From Naegleria gruberi (taxonomy: Eukaryota), in the NCBI GenBank assembly GCA_000004985.1, contig GG738850.1: 64,000 bases of DNA; one strand, 5' to 3'. Each line of letters begins with the position of its first letter. The first letter of the stretch is position 1. This document shows positions 1 through 47,870 of this stretch, piece after piece. Made by a program: the position numbers and the translations under genes. A model generated the notes under the pieces. The model saw only the letters and a list, made by a program, of their open reading frames with translations. It did not search any database and was not told where the DNA came from.

Positions 1-2801
1 TCAGAGAATCAATAATACTATTAAATTCTCCATCAGCATGTTGTGAGGTAGAAATCTCAATTTCAATACTTTCAGGTGTCTTGTTAACATGATCGCATAG
101 CCTTTGAATTGGTTCATCGTTGATTTGAGAAGGAGAGAGAATGTCATTTGTGTTGAGGAATGGATCTGTCAAAATTGTTGCAGGATCTTCCTGCTCTGGT
201 GGTTTTACATTCTCTTCTTTTATGTCTTCCACAACATATCTCTGGAGTGGGCGTGGGCTACTCTTCTTAATTTGCTTGTCAAGGTCATCCTCATCGTCGA
301 ATAAACTGTTGGATCCTGATGCGGATGAGTGTGAAAATACAAACGTCTCAGGACTAATACTAATCTTCTTTTCAAATTCATTCTCTGAAAAGGATGTTTC
401 AAATAGCTTTTCATATTCTCTTCGTTTTTCGGGACTAGTTACTGATATTTCCTCAATATTATATTGTGGCACTATTGTATAGTTAACATGGGGAGATTCA
501 TAATATTCTGTACGAGGTATGTCCTCTAGCTTAGTTTTCTTTGTTTGTTGCTCTATTCCTTCTGTTCTATCCGGTGCTATTTCGGATGGATATTCATCCA
601 ATGTTGGAGGGTTTGAGGCATTTGTGGAAAGGTTGTGTTGGGGTGTAATACGAATGAGTATTTGTCCTGTTTTTTCTTGCCTAGAACTGTCATACAGGTT
701 ATACCAACCACAAATATCAGACGAGTAAGAAAGAGGAGAAACATCAATACATGCCTCGCCCACCAATGTAACTCTTCTATTTACAATATCATGAATTTGA
801 AGGGTTATTTCATAATTAAATTTGGAAATATCTTTTCCAATAGTAATGGTTGTGAAATTTTTGGATAGCAATTCTTGTTCCATTAATTTTTCAACTCTTC
901 CCATCAATATCGAAAACATTACTTGAAAAGGTTAGAGATCTCTATCAATTTGGTAACTTACATTTTCCTTCGAATTCAATATCATGAATTCTCTCGATTG
1001 TTATTTTCACATCCCCATTGAACTTAAAAGATTTTGTCATGTTTGATTCTTTTGTTGAGGACAATTTTGGGGACAAGGTAGTGTTTTGTTTCTTTTCCAT
1101 AGTGACTACATTATTTTGTTTCAAGTCACCAAGTGCTTCCTTCATTTCTCGAATATCCTTCCCAATCTGAGTTAATTGTTGCCTGTAAATTTTCTCTAAT
1201 TTTCCAAAGGCACAAGTGAGGGCTACAAACGAACTTGTATTCTTAGTCTCATTATCAGATAAATAATTTACAAGATTTTCACCCTTCTTGTGTTGAAGGT
1301 CTTTTTCCCTAGATTCCACCATAACCTTTTCTGGTGATGCTCGCTTTTTAGTTTTATCATTCAGTAGAGAGGCTAGCATTATGCTCTCCTCATATATGGA
1401 ATCCGTAGTCGTGTTATTATTGTTTTCCTTTGGTTGTTCTGATATTGAAGATCTATTGTGGGAAGCCTGTATTTGCTCCTCTTCAACCTTATTAACATAG
1501 GCCACAAGGATTGGATTCAAACCTTCCTTTTCAGCCTTTCTTTCCTCCTCGGTTAGTTTTCTATAGTACATGGTTGATGAGTCCAGTGAGTGAAAGATTG
1601 GTATTTTCATTAAGTTCAAAGCACTTGGTCTTTTTGCTGGATTGTATTCAAACATGCAAGCCAGTGTTTGTAATGCTATTCCAGAAATTTCAAAATAGGG
1701 ATTGGAGGTAAGGAACCCCTTGAGAGCTGCCAATTTGTTAATCTTGATATTCTTTTTAGCAAGAGCAGCAAATAGCCGATTTTCCCAAACATACTTTGGA
1801 GTTTCAGCTCTATTATCTGATGAACCATACCCCAGCACTGAAATAGTATTGGTCACTTGATCTTCTAACGTTTTGGCGCTAAATAATGGATATGGAAGAA
1901 CCATTTCAGCAAATATGCAGCCAGCAGCCCAAATATCAACTTCTAGAGAATTAACAAAATTATGTTTCAGCTCTTTGTAAACTTTCTTCTTGTGTTTCGT
2001 CATTTTGTAAATGTCAATATCGTTACAAAGCCTGAAAACAAACTCTGGGGGCGAGTACCAAATCTGATTTTCAAAGAATTCCTTCACCACTACCTTGTTG
2101 TTCTCAGTGAATTTGACAGTGTATGGATCGATATGACTTTCTCCAAGTGGTTCATCAATGTACTTTCTTAAAAACTCAAGCTTGTCAATAATAAACGGCC
2201 TCATTGAAACCTTTCTAGTCCTCTTATTAATTAGAATGTTGCATGGCGAAAGTGAAAAGTATGGCTCTCCTAGTGCATGCAGTATTCGACAACTCTCCAA
2301 ACAACAAGTCATTATTGAGAAAATTAGACTATTTTTCAGTGGTTGATGTTCCTTAGTATTCCTAGATCTGTTCTTGTACAGCAAGTATCGTAACGATACA
2401 ATATCATCCAATTGTTCCACTGTACAAAAGTATTTATCTGTGTATTTAGAATTCTTCTCAATTTGTTCAAAATAAAAACAATCCAATAAATTAACAATAT
2501 CCTTCTCTCGCAAAAATAATAAACAATCAATCCTCTCATGAATATCCTTGTATTTGGAGTAGAGTTTTTCATCTTCCGAAGTATATTTTTCATGATCATA
2601 TGAATAAAGATATTGTTTGGTAATCAAGTAATGCGGTCTCTTCCGCTTTCGTTCGTCTCTATGTTTCCTATATGAAACTTCATCGCTTAGTTTCAAACAT
2701 ATGAATTGATGATCACTCAAAGTTTGAATGACCTCATATTGGTTCATTTTTTTGAGTATGAAATTGTTTTTATTTGGGCGGGAATACTTCAAACCCGCCA
2801 T
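1..2801 (-). CDS. CMGC/CDK-like kinase-like protein (probable pseudokinase) fused to a C-terminal C2-like domain. Two exons, 2801..962 and 921..1; the 3' end runs off the window.
   Basis: ORF 945..2801 carries a CDK/MAPK C-lobe (WYSPPE, DIWAAGCIFAEM, YNPAKRPSA), but HRD and DFG are degenerate. Its TGA sits inside a 40-nt GTAAGT..CTCTAAC..TTTTCAAG intron. Splicing joins it in frame (phase 1) to an uninterrupted minus-strand frame from 921 to 1, which the ORF track omits because it has no stop in the window. The join reconstitutes a single C2-like domain across the junction. ATG at 2801..2799. Confidence 0.6.
922..961 (-). other. spliceosomal intron (40 nt) joining the kinase-like exon to the C2-domain exon
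   Basis: Minus-strand GTAAGTTACC...CTCTAAC...TTTTCAAG. The in-frame stop of ORF 945..2801 is intronic, and the frame is preserved across the junction. Confidence 0.55.
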
Positions 2802-8874: not shown

Positions 8875-9891
8875 TTACTCTGGATCTACAGCACTAGCTC
8901 GAATCTTTTTGAGTAATTTGTTTGTTACTGAATCAACTGTTCCAACACTTCTCCATTCAGATTTGAATTTACATCCATTTCTGTAGGCACAAATTCCAAC
9001 CATTCCTTCAATTTCATCGTCGTCAGCAGTTGATGTCTTCAAACATGGAGCAACCAATTGACATCCATAATAATAATATTGAGAGGTGCAACCAGTGTAG
9101 AGAGCTCCAATGCCTGAATATTCCTTCATACAGTCAACTCTGCAAGCAACACATTTGGAAGAGGTGCTGCTACTAGTGCTACTTGTTGAAGTTTTTTTAG
9201 TTTTCTTCAATAATTTGTTCATGGAAGAAACTAATCTATTGGCTAATCTTTTACCTAATCTTTTACCGAATTTTTTCAAGATGGATTTCTTTGCTTTCTT
9301 ACTCTTTCTCTTTGTAGATTTTGCAACCTTTGAAGCAGATTTAAGAGTTTGAGTGGCACCTGTCACAGTACTTAGCGAACTACCATCAAATTGACGTCTA
9401 GATTCCAATTTACTTTTTGTTGGACCAGTATATCCATTGAAAGTTTGAACAGAATTTGCAATAATTTGAGCAGCCTTTCTTCTTCTGAAAACACCTGTCA
9501 ATTTTTTAACAAGTTTGACAGCTGCTTTAACCACACGTCCAACAGCACGACCAATTCTTCTAACAACACGTCTAAGTCTTCTAAAGGCTCTTCTGAATCT
9601 TCTACCAAAACGTAAAGTATTCACTTGTTCACTAGTTACCTCATGAAAATATTCCAAATCTTCTTCATCTAATTCTTCCTCAGTTGACAATGTTAAATGA
9701 GCAGATAAGAGTTCAGATTCTAATAATTCTTCAACATGAGCTGCTGAAAGTGTGGTGGTACGTTTAGAAGATGATGAAGATGTATCAGATGGTGATCTAC
9801 ATGAGGAACTTGTTGCTTTCGAAAAAGTGATAACGAAAGAAAGCAATAGAATGAGAATGCATGCAAAATATAATGAATGTTTTGTGTGCAT
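8875..9891 (-). CDS. secreted polycationic Cys-rich prepro-protein, tandem family member 1
   Basis: ATG at 9891 (the track started at an upstream TTG). Signal peptide MHTKHSLYFACILILLLSFVITFSKA, then a conserved TSSSCRSPSDTSSSS-KR propeptide, an acidic helix, Arg-rich repeats (RRFRRAFRRLRRVVRRIGRAVGR) and a C-terminal 8-Cys domain (CVACRVDC..YYYYGCQ..PC..GICAYRNGCKFK). It is paralogous to the next two genes. Confidence 0.6.
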   Translation of the reverse strand: MHTKHSLYFACILILLLSFVITFSKATSSSCRSPSDTSSSSSKRTTTLSAAHVEELLESELLSAHLTLSTEEELDEEDLEYFHEVTSEQVNTLRFGRRFRRAFRRLRRVVRRIGRAVGRVVKAAVKLVKKLTGVFRRRKAAQIIANSVQTFNGYTGPTKSKLESRRQFDGSSLSTVTGATQTLKSASKVAKSTKRKSKKAKKSILKKFGKRLGKRLANRLVSSMNKLLKKTKKTSTSSTSSSTSSKCVACRVDCMKEYSGIGALYTGCTSQYYYYGCQLVAPCLKTSTADDDEIEGMVGICAYRNGCKFKSEWRSVGTVDSVTNKLLKKIRASAVDPE

Positions 9892-10163: not shown

Positions 10164-11366
10164 TTACTCTGGATTCTGTCCAGCACCACGAATTCTACCA
10201 ACCAATTTATCAGCAACAAGTTGATTATCAGAAACTTCTTTCCATTCTCCCTTAAACTTGCAATCATTTCTATAAGCACAAATTCCAATCATTCCTTCAA
10301 TTTCATCATCTGAGGCAGTTGATGTTTGGAAACATGGTTTAACAGCTTGACATCCATAATAATAATAACGTTGTCCACATGATGAGAACATGGATCCATC
10401 AATGGTTGAATATTCCTTTAAACAATCAACTCTACAAGCAACACAATTGACTGGATGATTACCATCATTGGCATTACTCTTTTCCAAAGCTTCCATCTTG
10501 GATTTCAAAGATCCCTTAACCTTATCAGCTGCCTTCTTTACTCTTCCAGCAATTCCCTTAATTCCTTGACCAATCTTGGTAAAGATACTTGTTCTTCTTC
10601 CTCTTCTACTTCTTCCAACAGCAGCTGGAGCATTAACTGGTGCAGCAACTCTTCTTCTTCCAATTCTTCCAATTCTACCAATTCTTCCTCTAGCAACAAA
10701 TGCTGGTTGAGAAACTGGTCGAGAAACTGGAACTCTGAATGGTTTTGTTGAGACAATTCGATTATTATTGACAATTGGCATTAATACTGCTCTTCTTCTA
10801 TGACTTCTTCTTCTTCTAAAGAATCCCAAAGTAGTGGCAGCAGAAGCAACAACAGCAGCAGTTCTCTGAGCTCCACCTCCAACGAATGGTCTTCTCAATT
10901 CCAATGCTTCTCTATTAGGTCCAGTAAATCCATTGAAATCCTTCACTGAATTCATAATAATTTCTCTGGCACGTCTTCTTCTGAAAATACCACCAATAGC
11001 TCTGAAAGCTCTTCCAATGGCACGTCCAATTCTTCTGACGATTCTTCCAATTCTTCTGAATAATCTTCTGAATAGCAATGTATTATGAACATGTTCAGTT
11101 GTTAATTGTGTAAAATATTCCAAATCTTCTTCGGTGAGTCCTTGTTCAGCAAGAGTAACATGTGCATTCAATAACTCTGCTTCGATCAATTCGTTTAGTT
11201 CAGTTTCGAGTGTTGCAGCAGCTCCACGTTTACCAGATGATGAGGAAGTATCAGATGGTGATCTACATGAAGAACTTGTTGCCTTGATTGACTGATTGCT
11301 CAAGATGAACAACACGACAAGAATCGAAACCAAGAGAAGTGAAATTCTGGAAAAGTTTGTTTTCAT
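10164..11366 (-). CDS. secreted polycationic Cys-rich prepro-protein, tandem family member 2
   Basis: ATG at 11366 in an A-rich context. Signal peptide MKTNFSRISLLLVSILVVLFILS. Same SSSCRSPSDTSSSSGKR motif, acidic helix, RRIGRIVRRIGRAIGR repeats, GRIGRIGRIGRRR tract and conserved C-terminal Cys domain ending GQNPE. Confidence 0.6.
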   Translation of the reverse strand: MKTNFSRISLLLVSILVVLFILSNQSIKATSSSCRSPSDTSSSSGKRGAAATLETELNELIEAELLNAHVTLAEQGLTEEDLEYFTQLTTEHVHNTLLFRRLFRRIGRIVRRIGRAIGRAFRAIGGIFRRRRAREIIMNSVKDFNGFTGPNREALELRRPFVGGGAQRTAAVVASAATTLGFFRRRRSHRRRAVLMPIVNNNRIVSTKPFRVPVSRPVSQPAFVARGRIGRIGRIGRRRVAAPVNAPAAVGRSRRGRRTSIFTKIGQGIKGIAGRVKKAADKVKGSLKSKMEALEKSNANDGNHPVNCVACRVDCLKEYSTIDGSMFSSCGQRYYYYGCQAVKPCFQTSTASDDEIEGMIGICAYRNDCKFKGEWKEVSDNQLVADKLVGRIRGAGQNPE

Positions 11367-21134: not shown

Positions 21135-21572
21135 ATGAAAAGATTTATTTCAAATCTCTTGATTGCATTAACTTTGGCAATTTTGGCTCTCACATTGACT
21201 GCTGACAATGTCAATGCAGAACAACAAACAATGTCCTTGTACATTAAAAAGCACCACAAGAAAAATCAAAGAAAACTCAGAAAGGTATTGAAAAAGAACC
21301 ACAAGAGAAGAAACAATAGAAAGGTTCACAAGTATTTGGATTCCTACAAGCATAATAGAAAGGGAGCAGTTGCTCATGTGTTGGGTAATAATGGAAAGAA
21401 GAAAATTATCAGAAAGAAGATTGACATTTATGGAAAAAAGAAGAGAAGAAATAATAAGAGAAAAATCGACACCTACAAAAAGAAGAAGAACAATAGAAAG
21501 AATAGAAAGATGAGAAAGAACAAGAAAAGTGGAAAGAGAAACAAGAAAGTTGATCTCTACAAACGTAAATAG
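21135..21572 (+). CDS. secreted lysine/arginine-rich repeat protein (hypothetical)
   Basis: The internal ATG at 21135 gives a classic signal peptide (MKRFISNLLIALTLAILALTLTADNVNA). The mature part is extremely basic, with K/R/N-rich repeats containing (K/R)(I/V)D(I/T/L)Y units. ORF-track start at 21069. Confidence 0.45.
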   Translation: MKRFISNLLIALTLAILALTLTADNVNAEQQTMSLYIKKHHKKNQRKLRKVLKKNHKRRNNRKVHKYLDSYKHNRKGAVAHVLGNNGKKKIIRKKIDIYGKKKRRNNKRKIDTYKKKKNNRKNRKMRKNKKSGKRNKKVDLYKRK

Positions 21573-21718
21573 ATTTCTTTATATAGAAAAAGAATATTGT
21601 AAAGTTTGAAACAACAATTTTGTCAGATACGATATTTATCAATAAACTTGTGTGAGGAACAATTTGTGAAAAACGTAGTCTTAATAATTTCAATAATCGA
21701 ATACAAAATAAAAGGAAA

Positions 21719-21801
21719 TGCCAGCGGTGGGGTTCGAACCCACGAACCCATTCGGGATAAGATCTTAAGTCTTACGCATTTGACCACTCTGCTACGCGGG
21801 C
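21719..21801 (-). tRNA. tRNA-Leu (TAA)
   Basis: Minus strand GCCCGCG-TA-GCAGAGTGGTCAAATGC-G-TAAGA-CTTAAGA-TCTTA-long variable arm-GTGGGTTCGAACCCCAC-CGCTGGC-A. There is one C4:U69 mismatch in the acceptor stem. A T-rich terminator lies downstream. Confidence 0.8.
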
Positions 21802-21930: not shown

Positions 21931-23160
21931 TTACTCGTCATTACATTCAATTATTATATCAGAATTATTCCTTGATTGGTATTGAGAAAAGATTTTGGCT
22001 TTGAACTGTTTTTCTCCCTTGCTTTCATTAAATTCTGGATCCAAACAGTAAAATGTAAAATGTCCTCCAGCAATAGGTTTGTTCACTTTGATCACTCCAT
22101 TATCTAGTACATGCTCTGTTTTGAATTTTTCATAAGTGGATCTGCTTTGAGTATCCCCAAGTCCTTTAAACAACTAATATACTTTCAATTCCCATGTAAA
22201 TTACTTACCTAATCCACCATAATTATTAAATCCACAACAGAAAATAGTCCCATCAGATAAAACTACAAATGATTGCTGATATCCAACTGTTAAATAATTA
22301 ATTTGAACATTATTCGGCACTGAAAATGTTGCCTTCACCCATTCAGTCTTATCTCCAACTGAACCATCACCTAGCTCTCCAACTGCATTCCATCTAGATG
22401 GAATTAAGATGAGTGTCAAATATATTTTAGGATCATTGAAAACTTACCCTACTCCAAATATTTCATTTTCTACAGTAACGGCAATGGTGTGAAAATAACC
22501 ACACTCTGCAAACTTTATAGGACTCTTGACAATGGTCTTATCTATCATGATAAATTCAGTTGGCGTAATCATCGGTGCTATGCCTAATTGACCGTAAGTA
22601 TTTGATCCTGTTGTATATAAATTTCCACTTTCCGATAATATTAAGGAATGAGAACTATTTCTATGGTTATAGAAACTGAAAATAAATAATTACCTTCCAA
22701 AACTGGCATGAGAAAATTTTGAATCCTTTGCTGTTGATACTTTTTTGAAAGCTTTTCCATAATTTTCACAAATATACAATTCAGAATTATGTGTGATAAG
22801 AGCAGTACCATCAAACTTGGAAATTAATTTTTTTACATGTTTAGGATTAATTTCTAACTCAAGTTTTTTGTATTCTCTGAATATTGACTTGTCAGTCATG
22901 ATTATGAACGAATGACCAGCAGCAATTTTTAGAACATTTCGATCATCAAGAGGTAGATTTTTAACAAGATCAGTATTCTCTACATCTTGCAACATGATCA
23001 ATTTGTTTTCCGAAGTGAATAAAAAAACCTTTGATGATCCAACAGCTACTTGTTTAATGAACAAAGTTCTGGAAAGAGTTAATTTGTTTAACAGTGACGA
23101 ATTGTTATATGTACTCGATGAAATAATATCTCCTGACAGGAAACAATTGTTGGTATTCAT
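21931..23160 (-). CDS. RCC1-repeat protein, four exons (23160..22694, 22654..22448, 22393..22209, 22163..21931)
   Basis: Minus-strand ORF pieces 22690..23160, 22201..22419 and 21931..22173, plus an unlisted piece, join through three short GTAA(G/T)T introns (39, 54 and 45 nt). Total length is 1092 nt in frame. Exons contain GxNxYGQLG signatures (GSNTYGQLG, NYGGLGLGD). Confidence 0.55.
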
Positions 23161-47664: not shown

Positions 47665-47758
47665 AGACTACAGCACCACAGGTTCCCAAGTTGTCTCCAA
47701 CCTCAGTACTGATGTGGCTCGACTATGCTTAACTTCTCAAATCAAACGGGATCAGCTA
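47665..47758 (-). pseudogene. 5S rRNA pseudogene (3' ~90 nt retained, 5' end diverged)
   Basis: The reverse complement matches 5S from CCCGT..GATTTGAGAAGTTAAGCAT to GGTGCTGTAGTCT. The 5' 30 nt cannot form helix I. The 3' flank is homologous to that of 5S copy 2. Confidence 0.7.
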
Positions 47759-47870
47759 TTTTGACAAGTCATTATTCGAAAACAGAGAATTTTTATTAGC
47801 ACTACTTAAAAAATATTCCTATAATTGGGTTTTCATTAACACATTTGATGATGAGCTATACGAATGTGGA

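Follow-up and report, generated by a model that had tools for sequence, protein, structure and literature searches.

The naegleriapores of Naegleria are saposin-like, pore-forming peptides that derive from multipeptide precursors, are rich in cysteine and have a six-Cys saposin fold. Precursors holding several small peptides are also familiar from other organisms. The thyrotropin-releasing hormone (TRH) precursor is built of KR-QHPG-KR units, Tyr-Gly-Lys-Arg/Lys is the classical cleavage-plus-amidation site, as in neuropeptide Y (NPY), and the alpha-factor precursor of yeast carries repeated tiny cores between basic pairs. In the KEX2-processed repeat proteins and ustiloxin-type precursors of fungi, a signal peptide precedes numerous short cores that contain Tyr and have dibasic flanks (PMC6339444, PMC7329392). 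Amidated signalling peptides also exist in Chlamydomonas, a unicellular ciliated alga (PMC6919629, PMC9351486). In Plasmodium, lysine-rich low-complexity repeats of exported proteins are functional as targeting or binding modules (PMC5207086). Here we describe an open reading frame (ORF) on the plus strand of a 64,000-nucleotide stretch of Naegleria gruberi DNA (contig GG738850.1; hereafter the window), which a first-pass annotation had read as encoding a secreted polycationic repeat protein. The ORF runs from an ATG at 21135 to a TAG at 21570-21572, and its product has 145 aa. Comparison with its relatives indicates that it is a genuine, intronless gene of N. gruberi NEG-M lacking annotation, and it very probably belongs to a Naegleria orphan family with a secretory N-terminus.

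The best matches in a collection of 5.8 billion protein clusters were three N. gruberi "predicted proteins", XP_002673814, XP_002673524 and XP_002676724 (P0001-P0003; locus tags NAEGRDRAFT_71069, 71365 and 68008), each encoded on a separate scaffold. These paralogs aligned with the window protein at 50-58% identity and 100% query coverage, with E-values of 4e-26, 1e-25 and 7e-14. A HMMER profile search of 1.84 billion representative proteins returned five proteins only, all of this family. They included two further N. gruberi members, XP_002676161 (P0006; 68479) and XP_002675247 (P0008; 50395), and the fifth match was a metagenome protein. A second search with an eight-sequence profile added no members. 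Scans of JGI metagenome contigs (600 pattern matches) and IMG/VR (510) with family patterns gave no true relative, and tblastn of the family against the window did not find a second copy. The window protein itself is absent from the cluster collection, where nothing is more than 58% identical to it, and exact-sequence look-ups of its 145-aa and 167-aa versions gave no match, nor did those of P0001-P0003 in the assembly index. Pfam returned nothing above cut-off (sub-threshold DUF4760, E 0.049; LPAM_1, E 0.31), and a PDB profile search yielded chance matches only (E > 0.4).

The alignments identify the window ORF as the sixth N. gruberi paralog of a family that is otherwise found on three environmental contigs, L001, L002 and L003. 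On this evidence, the family occurs only in N. gruberi and in environmental amoebae closely related to it. The protein searches matched no annotated protein from another organism, N. fowleri included. This absence outside N. gruberi is weak evidence, given that even in N. gruberi half of the copies are either missing from the annotation or mis-modelled. The model of P0006 looks wrong, with an unrelated N-terminus in place of the signal peptide. That of P0008 (565 aa), which also looks wrong, is related to the family at its N-terminus only; it fuses a family domain of 130 residues with a C-terminal region that is rich in Gln/Asn and unrelated. The window copy has the architecture common to the family, namely an MKR-hydrophobic signal, a V-x-(A/C/G) site, a linker free of Lys and Arg, at least two units of the form Φ-D-x-Y in basic tracts (Φ being I, V, F or L), and a C-terminal unit followed by K-R/K-K-stop. 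It shares the signal peptide, the uncharged linker, the units, the basic tracts and the C-terminal KK-V/F-D-x-Y-K-R/K-K stop with the five other N. gruberi paralogs, and this C-terminus is kept in all complete family members. The window copy differs from the five paralogs in being unannotated, in lacking the Gly after unit 1 and in a unique AVAHVLGNN insertion, which occupies the place of a short W/L-K-R-Y/F stretch in the paralogs.

DNA homology between the window and L001 covers positions 21123-21574 only, i.e. it stops at the borders of the ORF. Identity to L001 is 75% at first, 79% at second and 61% at third codon positions, and synonymous codon differences occur at 23 of the 82 conserved residues. 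The ratio of non-synonymous to synonymous substitution rates (dN/dS, Nei-Gojobori) was 0.30 and 0.34 against L001 and L002, respectively, within an overall range of 0.30-0.51. These values indicate that the gene is under purifying selection. In codon choice the gene is intermediate between two others of the window, those for ribosomal protein uL14 and for a phosphatidylinositol 3-kinase (PI3K)-like protein, with a bias towards the former and away from the latter (AAG 25 vs AAA 13; AGA for 15 of the 16 Arg residues).

The comparison also bears on the start codon. The first-pass annotation had pointed to an in-frame upstream ATG at 21069, the use of which would bury the hydrophobic segment. This ATG is present in the window and is not conserved. 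All correctly modelled relatives begin with MKR. In L001 an in-frame TGA lies five codons 5' of MKR, and in L002 the stretch from an upstream stop to MKR contains no ATG. The start context at 21135, with AAA at -3 to -1, fits the A-rich context of other genes in the window, and that of the rival ATG is tgaATGg. A TATA-like 10-mer, CTTTAAATTG, is found at exactly -50 in L001 as well as in the window, and CTATAAATTA at -51 in L002, within upstream DNA that is otherwise unalignable between the three. The ATG at 21069 sits 16 nt upstream of this element, outside the predicted transcript, and there is no ATG between the element and 21135. Being unconserved, upstream of the conserved TATA-like box and outside the A-rich type of context, 21069 is on sequence evidence very unlikely as the start, and 21135 stands as the predicted initiation codon. 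Conservation extends beyond the 3' end of the gene, where an element downstream of the stop aligns with both L001 and L002 (Table 1). Between L002 and L003, which carry near-identical metagenome alleles, the ~90 nt after the stop codon (L002 527-616, L003 547-636) are 100% identical; the 5' flanks of the two differ by many substitutions and indels. The 3' untranslated region (UTR) of the family may be under constraint. For these two alleles the metagenome gene caller ran past the TAG stop, adding ~24 spurious residues.

The N-terminal ~20 residues are the best-conserved block of the family. From the (-3,-1) rule and the family comparison, we infer that residues 1-28 form a cleavable endoplasmic reticulum (ER) signal peptide, with MKR as its n-region and a cut after V-N-A. 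Val occupies position -3 of the predicted cut in 7/7 proteins. Position -1 is Ala in four, Gly in two and Cys in one of the seven, and the near-identical alleles L002 and L003 differ there by Cys vs Gly. Since substitutions at -1 are limited to small residues, they fit selection for signal-peptidase cleavage. The first Lys or Arg appears only 10-16 residues past the cut in every member; in the window copy this short, uncharged linker is EQQTMSLYI. A neutral or acidic linker would favour translocation of the C-terminal side. Whether the N-terminus is cleaved or anchored, the predicted location of the polybasic part is lumenal or extracellular. The signal-peptide-like N-terminus that had been called from the window alone is thus matched across the family.

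Downstream of the signal peptide, the most regular feature is the Φ-D-x-Y unit. All four strings that had been quoted as repeats (RKVHKYLDSYKH, KKIDIYGKKK, RKIDTYKKKK and KKVDLYKRK) are present, and all four Asp residues of the mature region lie within Φ-D-x-Y (LDSY, IDIY, IDTY and VDLY). Composition-preserving shuffles produced neither four or more units (0/200,000) nor three or more units preceded by K/R (0/200,000), and the repeat units are not due to chance. We compiled unit statistics from 25 units in seven proteins, with two to five units per protein and four in the window copy. Asp and Tyr are invariant in 25/25, and the residue between them is variable. Position -2 is K/R in 25/25, and either K/R or Tyr occurs at -1. 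After the invariant Tyr, only Gly (13 units) or K/R (12 units) is found at +1, with a basic residue at +2 in 24/25 and at +3 in 24/25. The resulting grammar, [KR][KRY]-Φ-D-x-Y-[G or K/R]-[KR][KR], looks like that of dibasic-cleaved, Gly-amidated precursor sites. In unit 1, the Tyr is followed by Gly and a basic pair in five of six carriers (P0001, P0002, P0003, P0006 and P0008), the Gly having been lost in the window copy, and the unit is missing from L002 and L003. Unit 2 holds the only Tyr-Gly-Lys-Lys amidation-type site of the window copy. Units in P0008 are nearly adjacent, reading VDIY-KKK-FDTYG-KR and IDIY-KRK-RIDTYG-KK. Tyrosine sulfation at D-x-Y was considered and set aside, as basic surroundings disfavour this modification.

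The 117-aa mature region contains 37 Lys, 15 Arg, 14 Asn, 6 His and 5 acidic residues. With 44% K+R, a net charge of +47 and an isoelectric point of 11.6, it is strongly basic, as the first-pass annotation had described, although the figure of roughly 50% K/R given there is slightly high and is reached only if His is counted. The region has no Cys and no N-glycosylation sequon (N-x-S/T). All family members keep K+R within 42-47% and net charge within +32 to +47, despite common K/R swaps and in-frame indels in the tracts. This pattern suggests that selection acts on two traits, one being the polybasic nature of the protein as a whole and the other the short Φ-D-x-Y unit. An AlphaFold2 model from a four-sequence alignment gave two long low-confidence helices (pLDDT 66.9, pTM 0.25), consistent with a mature chain that is without a defined fold. 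The resemblance to histatins or histone H1 that had been proposed proved to be compositional only, with 5% His, no linker-histone domain and no Pfam or PDB matches.

Our preferred reading, which we put forward tentatively, is that the protein is a secretory or endolysosomal polycation that would act on polyanionic targets, with the units as recognition or processing points. By sequence rules, the released protein would be ~14.5 kDa, without a stable fold and of net charge +47, and would enter the secretory or endolysosomal pathway. Its action would be charge-driven, as a multivalent polycation binding polyanionic targets. A bacterivorous amoeba could meet such targets in the phagolysosome or extracellularly, in the form of bacterial envelopes, nucleic acids or acidic polysaccharides; the first two are the obvious candidates because N. 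gruberi lives on bacteria. The four units would serve as points of specific recognition or processing, and the pre-protein would probably be cut at or beside them into shorter cationic pieces.

Several observations weigh against the proposal of a secretory or endolysosomal polycation. A function in charge only leaves the invariant Φ-D-x-Y, and the restriction to Gly or K/R after the Tyr, unexplained. There is no clear amphipathic segment. The best 18-residue helical moment, 0.68 near the start of the mature chain, is marginal, as 208 of 5,000 shuffles equalled it, and no such signal comes from the repeat region. The mature part has no β moment and a mean hydrophobicity of -0.83. The protein therefore shows no clear sign of the hallmark of membrane-lytic antimicrobial peptides. 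The coding differences between L002 and L003 are mostly non-synonymous, and parts of the protein may be weakly constrained or fast-evolving. The uncharged stretch at the N-terminus is long (~20 residues), so that an uncleaved type II signal anchor is possible. No paper was found in literature searches for the paralogs by locus tag, by UniProt accession or, for one of them, by RefSeq accession.

The unit grammar raises a second reading, in which the protein is a multi-copy precursor of bioactive peptides. Once the signal peptide is removed, a kexin/furin-like convertase would cut the basic tracts, a carboxypeptidase would trim K/R, and an amidating enzyme would convert the Gly after the Tyr. 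The products, (Y)LDSY, IDIY-NH2, IDTY and VDLY, would be diffusible signals or cores of ribosomally synthesised and post-translationally modified peptides (RiPPs), and the tracts would be mere spacers and cleavage sites. We consider this reading unlikely, though it is the main rival. The strict grammar over the 25 units speaks for it, as do the variation in unit number, the almost back-to-back units of P0008 and the match of Tyr-Gly-Lys-Arg/Lys and of the dibasic flanks to the NPY-type site and the TRH precursor, respectively. The fungal precursors (PMC6339444, PMC7329392) and the Chlamydomonas peptides (PMC6919629, PMC9351486) offer parallels by analogy. Basic flanks are, however, partly expected from a composition of 44% K/R, and Gly follows the Tyr in only one of the four window-copy units and never in the C-terminal unit. 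Spacers in known peptide precursors are usually neutral or acidic, whereas those of this family are long (10-25 residues) and basic in all paralogs, and nearly half of the protein would be thrown away as free K/R. No modifying-enzyme genes adjoin the ORF. We found no usable literature linking Naegleria to peptidylglycine amidation, kexin or furin; one survey mentions a convertase P-domain in Excavata, with the species not named (PMC2770060). A more far-reaching form of the precursor reading is a pre-pro-peptide system in a heterolobosean amoeba, in which each gene would release several copies of Tyr-terminated, partly amidated tetra- or pentapeptides (Φ-D-x-Y-NH2), with basic spacers that might double as antimicrobial by-products. 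We regard that form as less likely still.

The signal peptide, the lack of a fold and the extreme basic charge would also suit a structural or adhesive extracellular protein, which would be deposited on the substrate, the cyst wall or the surface of the cell, would bind acidic polysaccharides and might be cross-linked through Tyr as dityrosine or quinone. Lys/Tyr-rich mussel adhesive proteins and the tyrosine-cross-linked walls of cysts and oocysts provide the analogy, and the Tyr of the units is invariant and evenly spaced. Tyr makes up only 5% of the mature chain, however, far below its share in adhesive or wall proteins. The mature chain has no Cys, there are no Gly/Pro-rich or carbohydrate-binding domains, and nothing ties the family to encystment, which leaves a structural role improbable.

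The protein might instead not be released, being an uncleaved type II signal anchor or retained in an organelle. Its polybasic tail would then bind, e.g., polyphosphate or lumenal nucleic acid within the ER/Golgi, acidocalcisome-like compartments or the contractile-vacuole system. The ~20 uncharged residues after MKR are long for the h-region of a signal peptide, and for either kind of N-terminus the orientation predicted from the difference in charge between the two ends of the segment is N-in/C-out. Against retention, the c-region has small or polar residues, and the V-x-(A/C/G) site has been kept through changes from Ala to Cys to Gly, as expected under selection for signal-peptidase cleavage. 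The C-terminus carries no KDEL-type or di-lysine retrieval signal; a KKXX ER-retrieval signal was considered, and the terminal LYKRK does not fit it. We give retention a small chance. Finally, a non-functional ORF, either a chance-open A/G-rich low-complexity stretch or a decaying family pseudogene, might be read from its omission from the N. gruberi gene set, the lost Gly of unit 1 and the unique insertion, but is very improbable given a frame open over 145 codons with signal peptide, all four units and C-terminus intact, the dN/dS of 0.30-0.34 against two relatives, the conserved TATA-like box, start context and 3'-UTR element, and two other members that are mis-modelled too, which indicates that annotation is simply poor for this family.

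Table 1. Features of the gene and its immediate surroundings (window positions).
Feature	Position	Strand	Remarks
Coding sequence, 145 codons + TAG, intronless	21135-21572	+	ORF listing and family similarity
Predicted signal peptide, residues 1-28, MKRFISNLLIALTLAILALTLTADNVNA	21135-21218	+	predicted cut after V-N-A28
Predicted mature polycationic region, residues 29-145, 117 aa	21219-21569	+	short uncharged linker, then K/R/N tracts
Unit 1, K-Y-L-D-S-Y-K, residues 66-72	21330-21350	+	
Unit 2, R-K-K-I-D-I-Y-G-K-K-K, residues 93-103	21411-21443	+	
Unit 3, K-R-K-I-D-T-Y-K-K-K-K, residues 108-118	21456-21488	+	
Unit 4, C-terminal, N-K-K-V-D-L-Y-K-R-K then stop	21540-21569	+	
TATA-like element CTTTAAATTG	21085-21094	+	putative core promoter (inferred function), 50 nt before ATG
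Conserved 3'-UTR element GAATATTGTAAAGTTTGAAAC	21592-21612	+	aligns with CAATTTTGTTATGCTTAGAGA in L001 and CAATTTTGTAAATTTTGAAAT in L002
AATAAA	21641-21646	+	3' of conserved 3'-UTR element
5S rRNA gene	20669-20787	+	106.5 bits
tRNA-Leu(TAA)	21719-21801	-	

The gene lies between a 5S rRNA gene and a tRNA-Leu gene, as had been noted before (Table 1), in a window of ~34% G+C. Rfam found no RNA genes on the paralog locus L001, and the 5S and tRNA flanks are therefore no feature of the family, at least at L001. Upstream lies the PI3K-like ORF (17263-20550, 1095 aa), which is 100% identical to N. gruberi XP_002681327.1 and so assigns the window to N. gruberi NEG-M. Downstream, positions 21931-23160 (-) contain ORF fragments that, on inspection by eye, appear to be interrupted by short introns and to have RCC1-like motifs; a Pfam scan of one fragment, 22693-23160, gave no match. 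Upstream of the paralog on L001, a gene at 160-819 (+) has precomputed matches to RCC1_2 (weak) and WD40_RLD. These RCC1-like neighbours may be a coincidence or a trace of segmental duplication. By blastn, window and L001 show no DNA similarity outside the ORF.

Three 5S and four tRNA genes are dispersed among the protein genes of the 64 kb. The 5S match at 47665-47783 (-) scores 45.4 bits vs 105-106 bits at 20669-20787 and 60330-60448, and this copy may be diverged or decaying. A tRNA of 89 nt at 17115-17203 (+) scores 54.7 bits with Rfam, was missed by ARAGORN and is separated by only 60 nt from the beginning of the PI3K-like gene; its sequence suggests an intron beside a GCA anticodon. Elsewhere in the window, three tandem paralogous ORFs of 338, 400 and 365 aa (8875-9891, 10164-11366 and 11775-12872, all on the minus strand) have a signal-peptide-like N-terminus, a conserved ATSSSCRSP(S/A)DTSSS, an acidic segment and, after it, a stretch that is rich in Arg and apparently amphipathic (e.g. 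FGRRFRRAFRRLRRVVRRIGRAVGRVVKAAVKLVKKL). They have no Pfam matches. These ORFs are presumably what the first-pass annotation had counted as a first type of secreted polycationic protein, and their sequence is unrelated to the product of 21135-21572.

The reference annotation of N. gruberi fails for half of this family, since of the six copies one is absent and two have wrong models. Secreted proteins that are short and of low complexity are therefore probably under-counted in N. gruberi and in its pathogenic relative N. fowleri. A lineage-restricted family that combines a secretion signal with a net charge of more than +40 and a strict short motif is a reasonable candidate for prey handling or communication in a bacterivorous amoeba. 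If the processing grammar is true, dibasic-cleaved, Gly-amidated peptide signalling would extend to Discoba. If the peptide-precursor reading holds, a TRH/NPY-style peptidergic signal or a RiPP core would exist in a lineage far from animals, fungi and green algae. Should the protein merely bind by charge, it would be an ordinary, though extreme, secreted polycation.

The searches place the family without a sequence or fold relationship to anything characterised, and its resemblances to known systems are of other kinds. With multi-copy peptide precursors (TRH, NPY-type, alpha-factor, and the fungal KEX2-processed and ustiloxin-type), it would share a signal peptide, short cores in basic flanks, a Gly often placed before a basic pair and a variable copy number. 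In contrast to these precursors, with which it has no homology, its spacers are long, conserved and polybasic, and Gly is present in about half of the units. The Plasmodium lysine-rich repeat proteins (PMC5207086) likewise use the secretory pathway, whereas their sequence is unrelated, their repeat unit is another and they serve parasite-host export. To cationic host-defence polycations such as histatins, protamine-like and histone-derived proteins, the Naegleria protein is comparable by analogy in its very high positive charge, its lack of a fold and a plausible antibacterial role. Histatins, however, are salivary proteins of primates in which His makes up roughly a quarter of residues, compared to 6 His in 117 residues (~5%) in the Naegleria protein, which had no homologs outside Naegleria in our searches. 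Linker histone H1 is nuclear and has a winged-helix domain and no signal peptide; the Naegleria protein has no such Pfam domain and carries a signal sequence. Protamine, also nuclear and without a signal peptide, is dominated by Arg, whereas the Naegleria protein has a signal sequence and is dominated by Lys (37 Lys vs 15 Arg). Amphipathic lytic antimicrobial peptides present a hydrophobic-faced helix, of which the Naegleria protein has no clear example. The naegleriapores have a Cys-rich saposin fold, unlike the polybasic protein, which has no Cys in its mature part, no Pfam match and no confident fold. By analogy, the two would nevertheless have in common the genus, the secretory route, the processing of a precursor and an antibacterial role.

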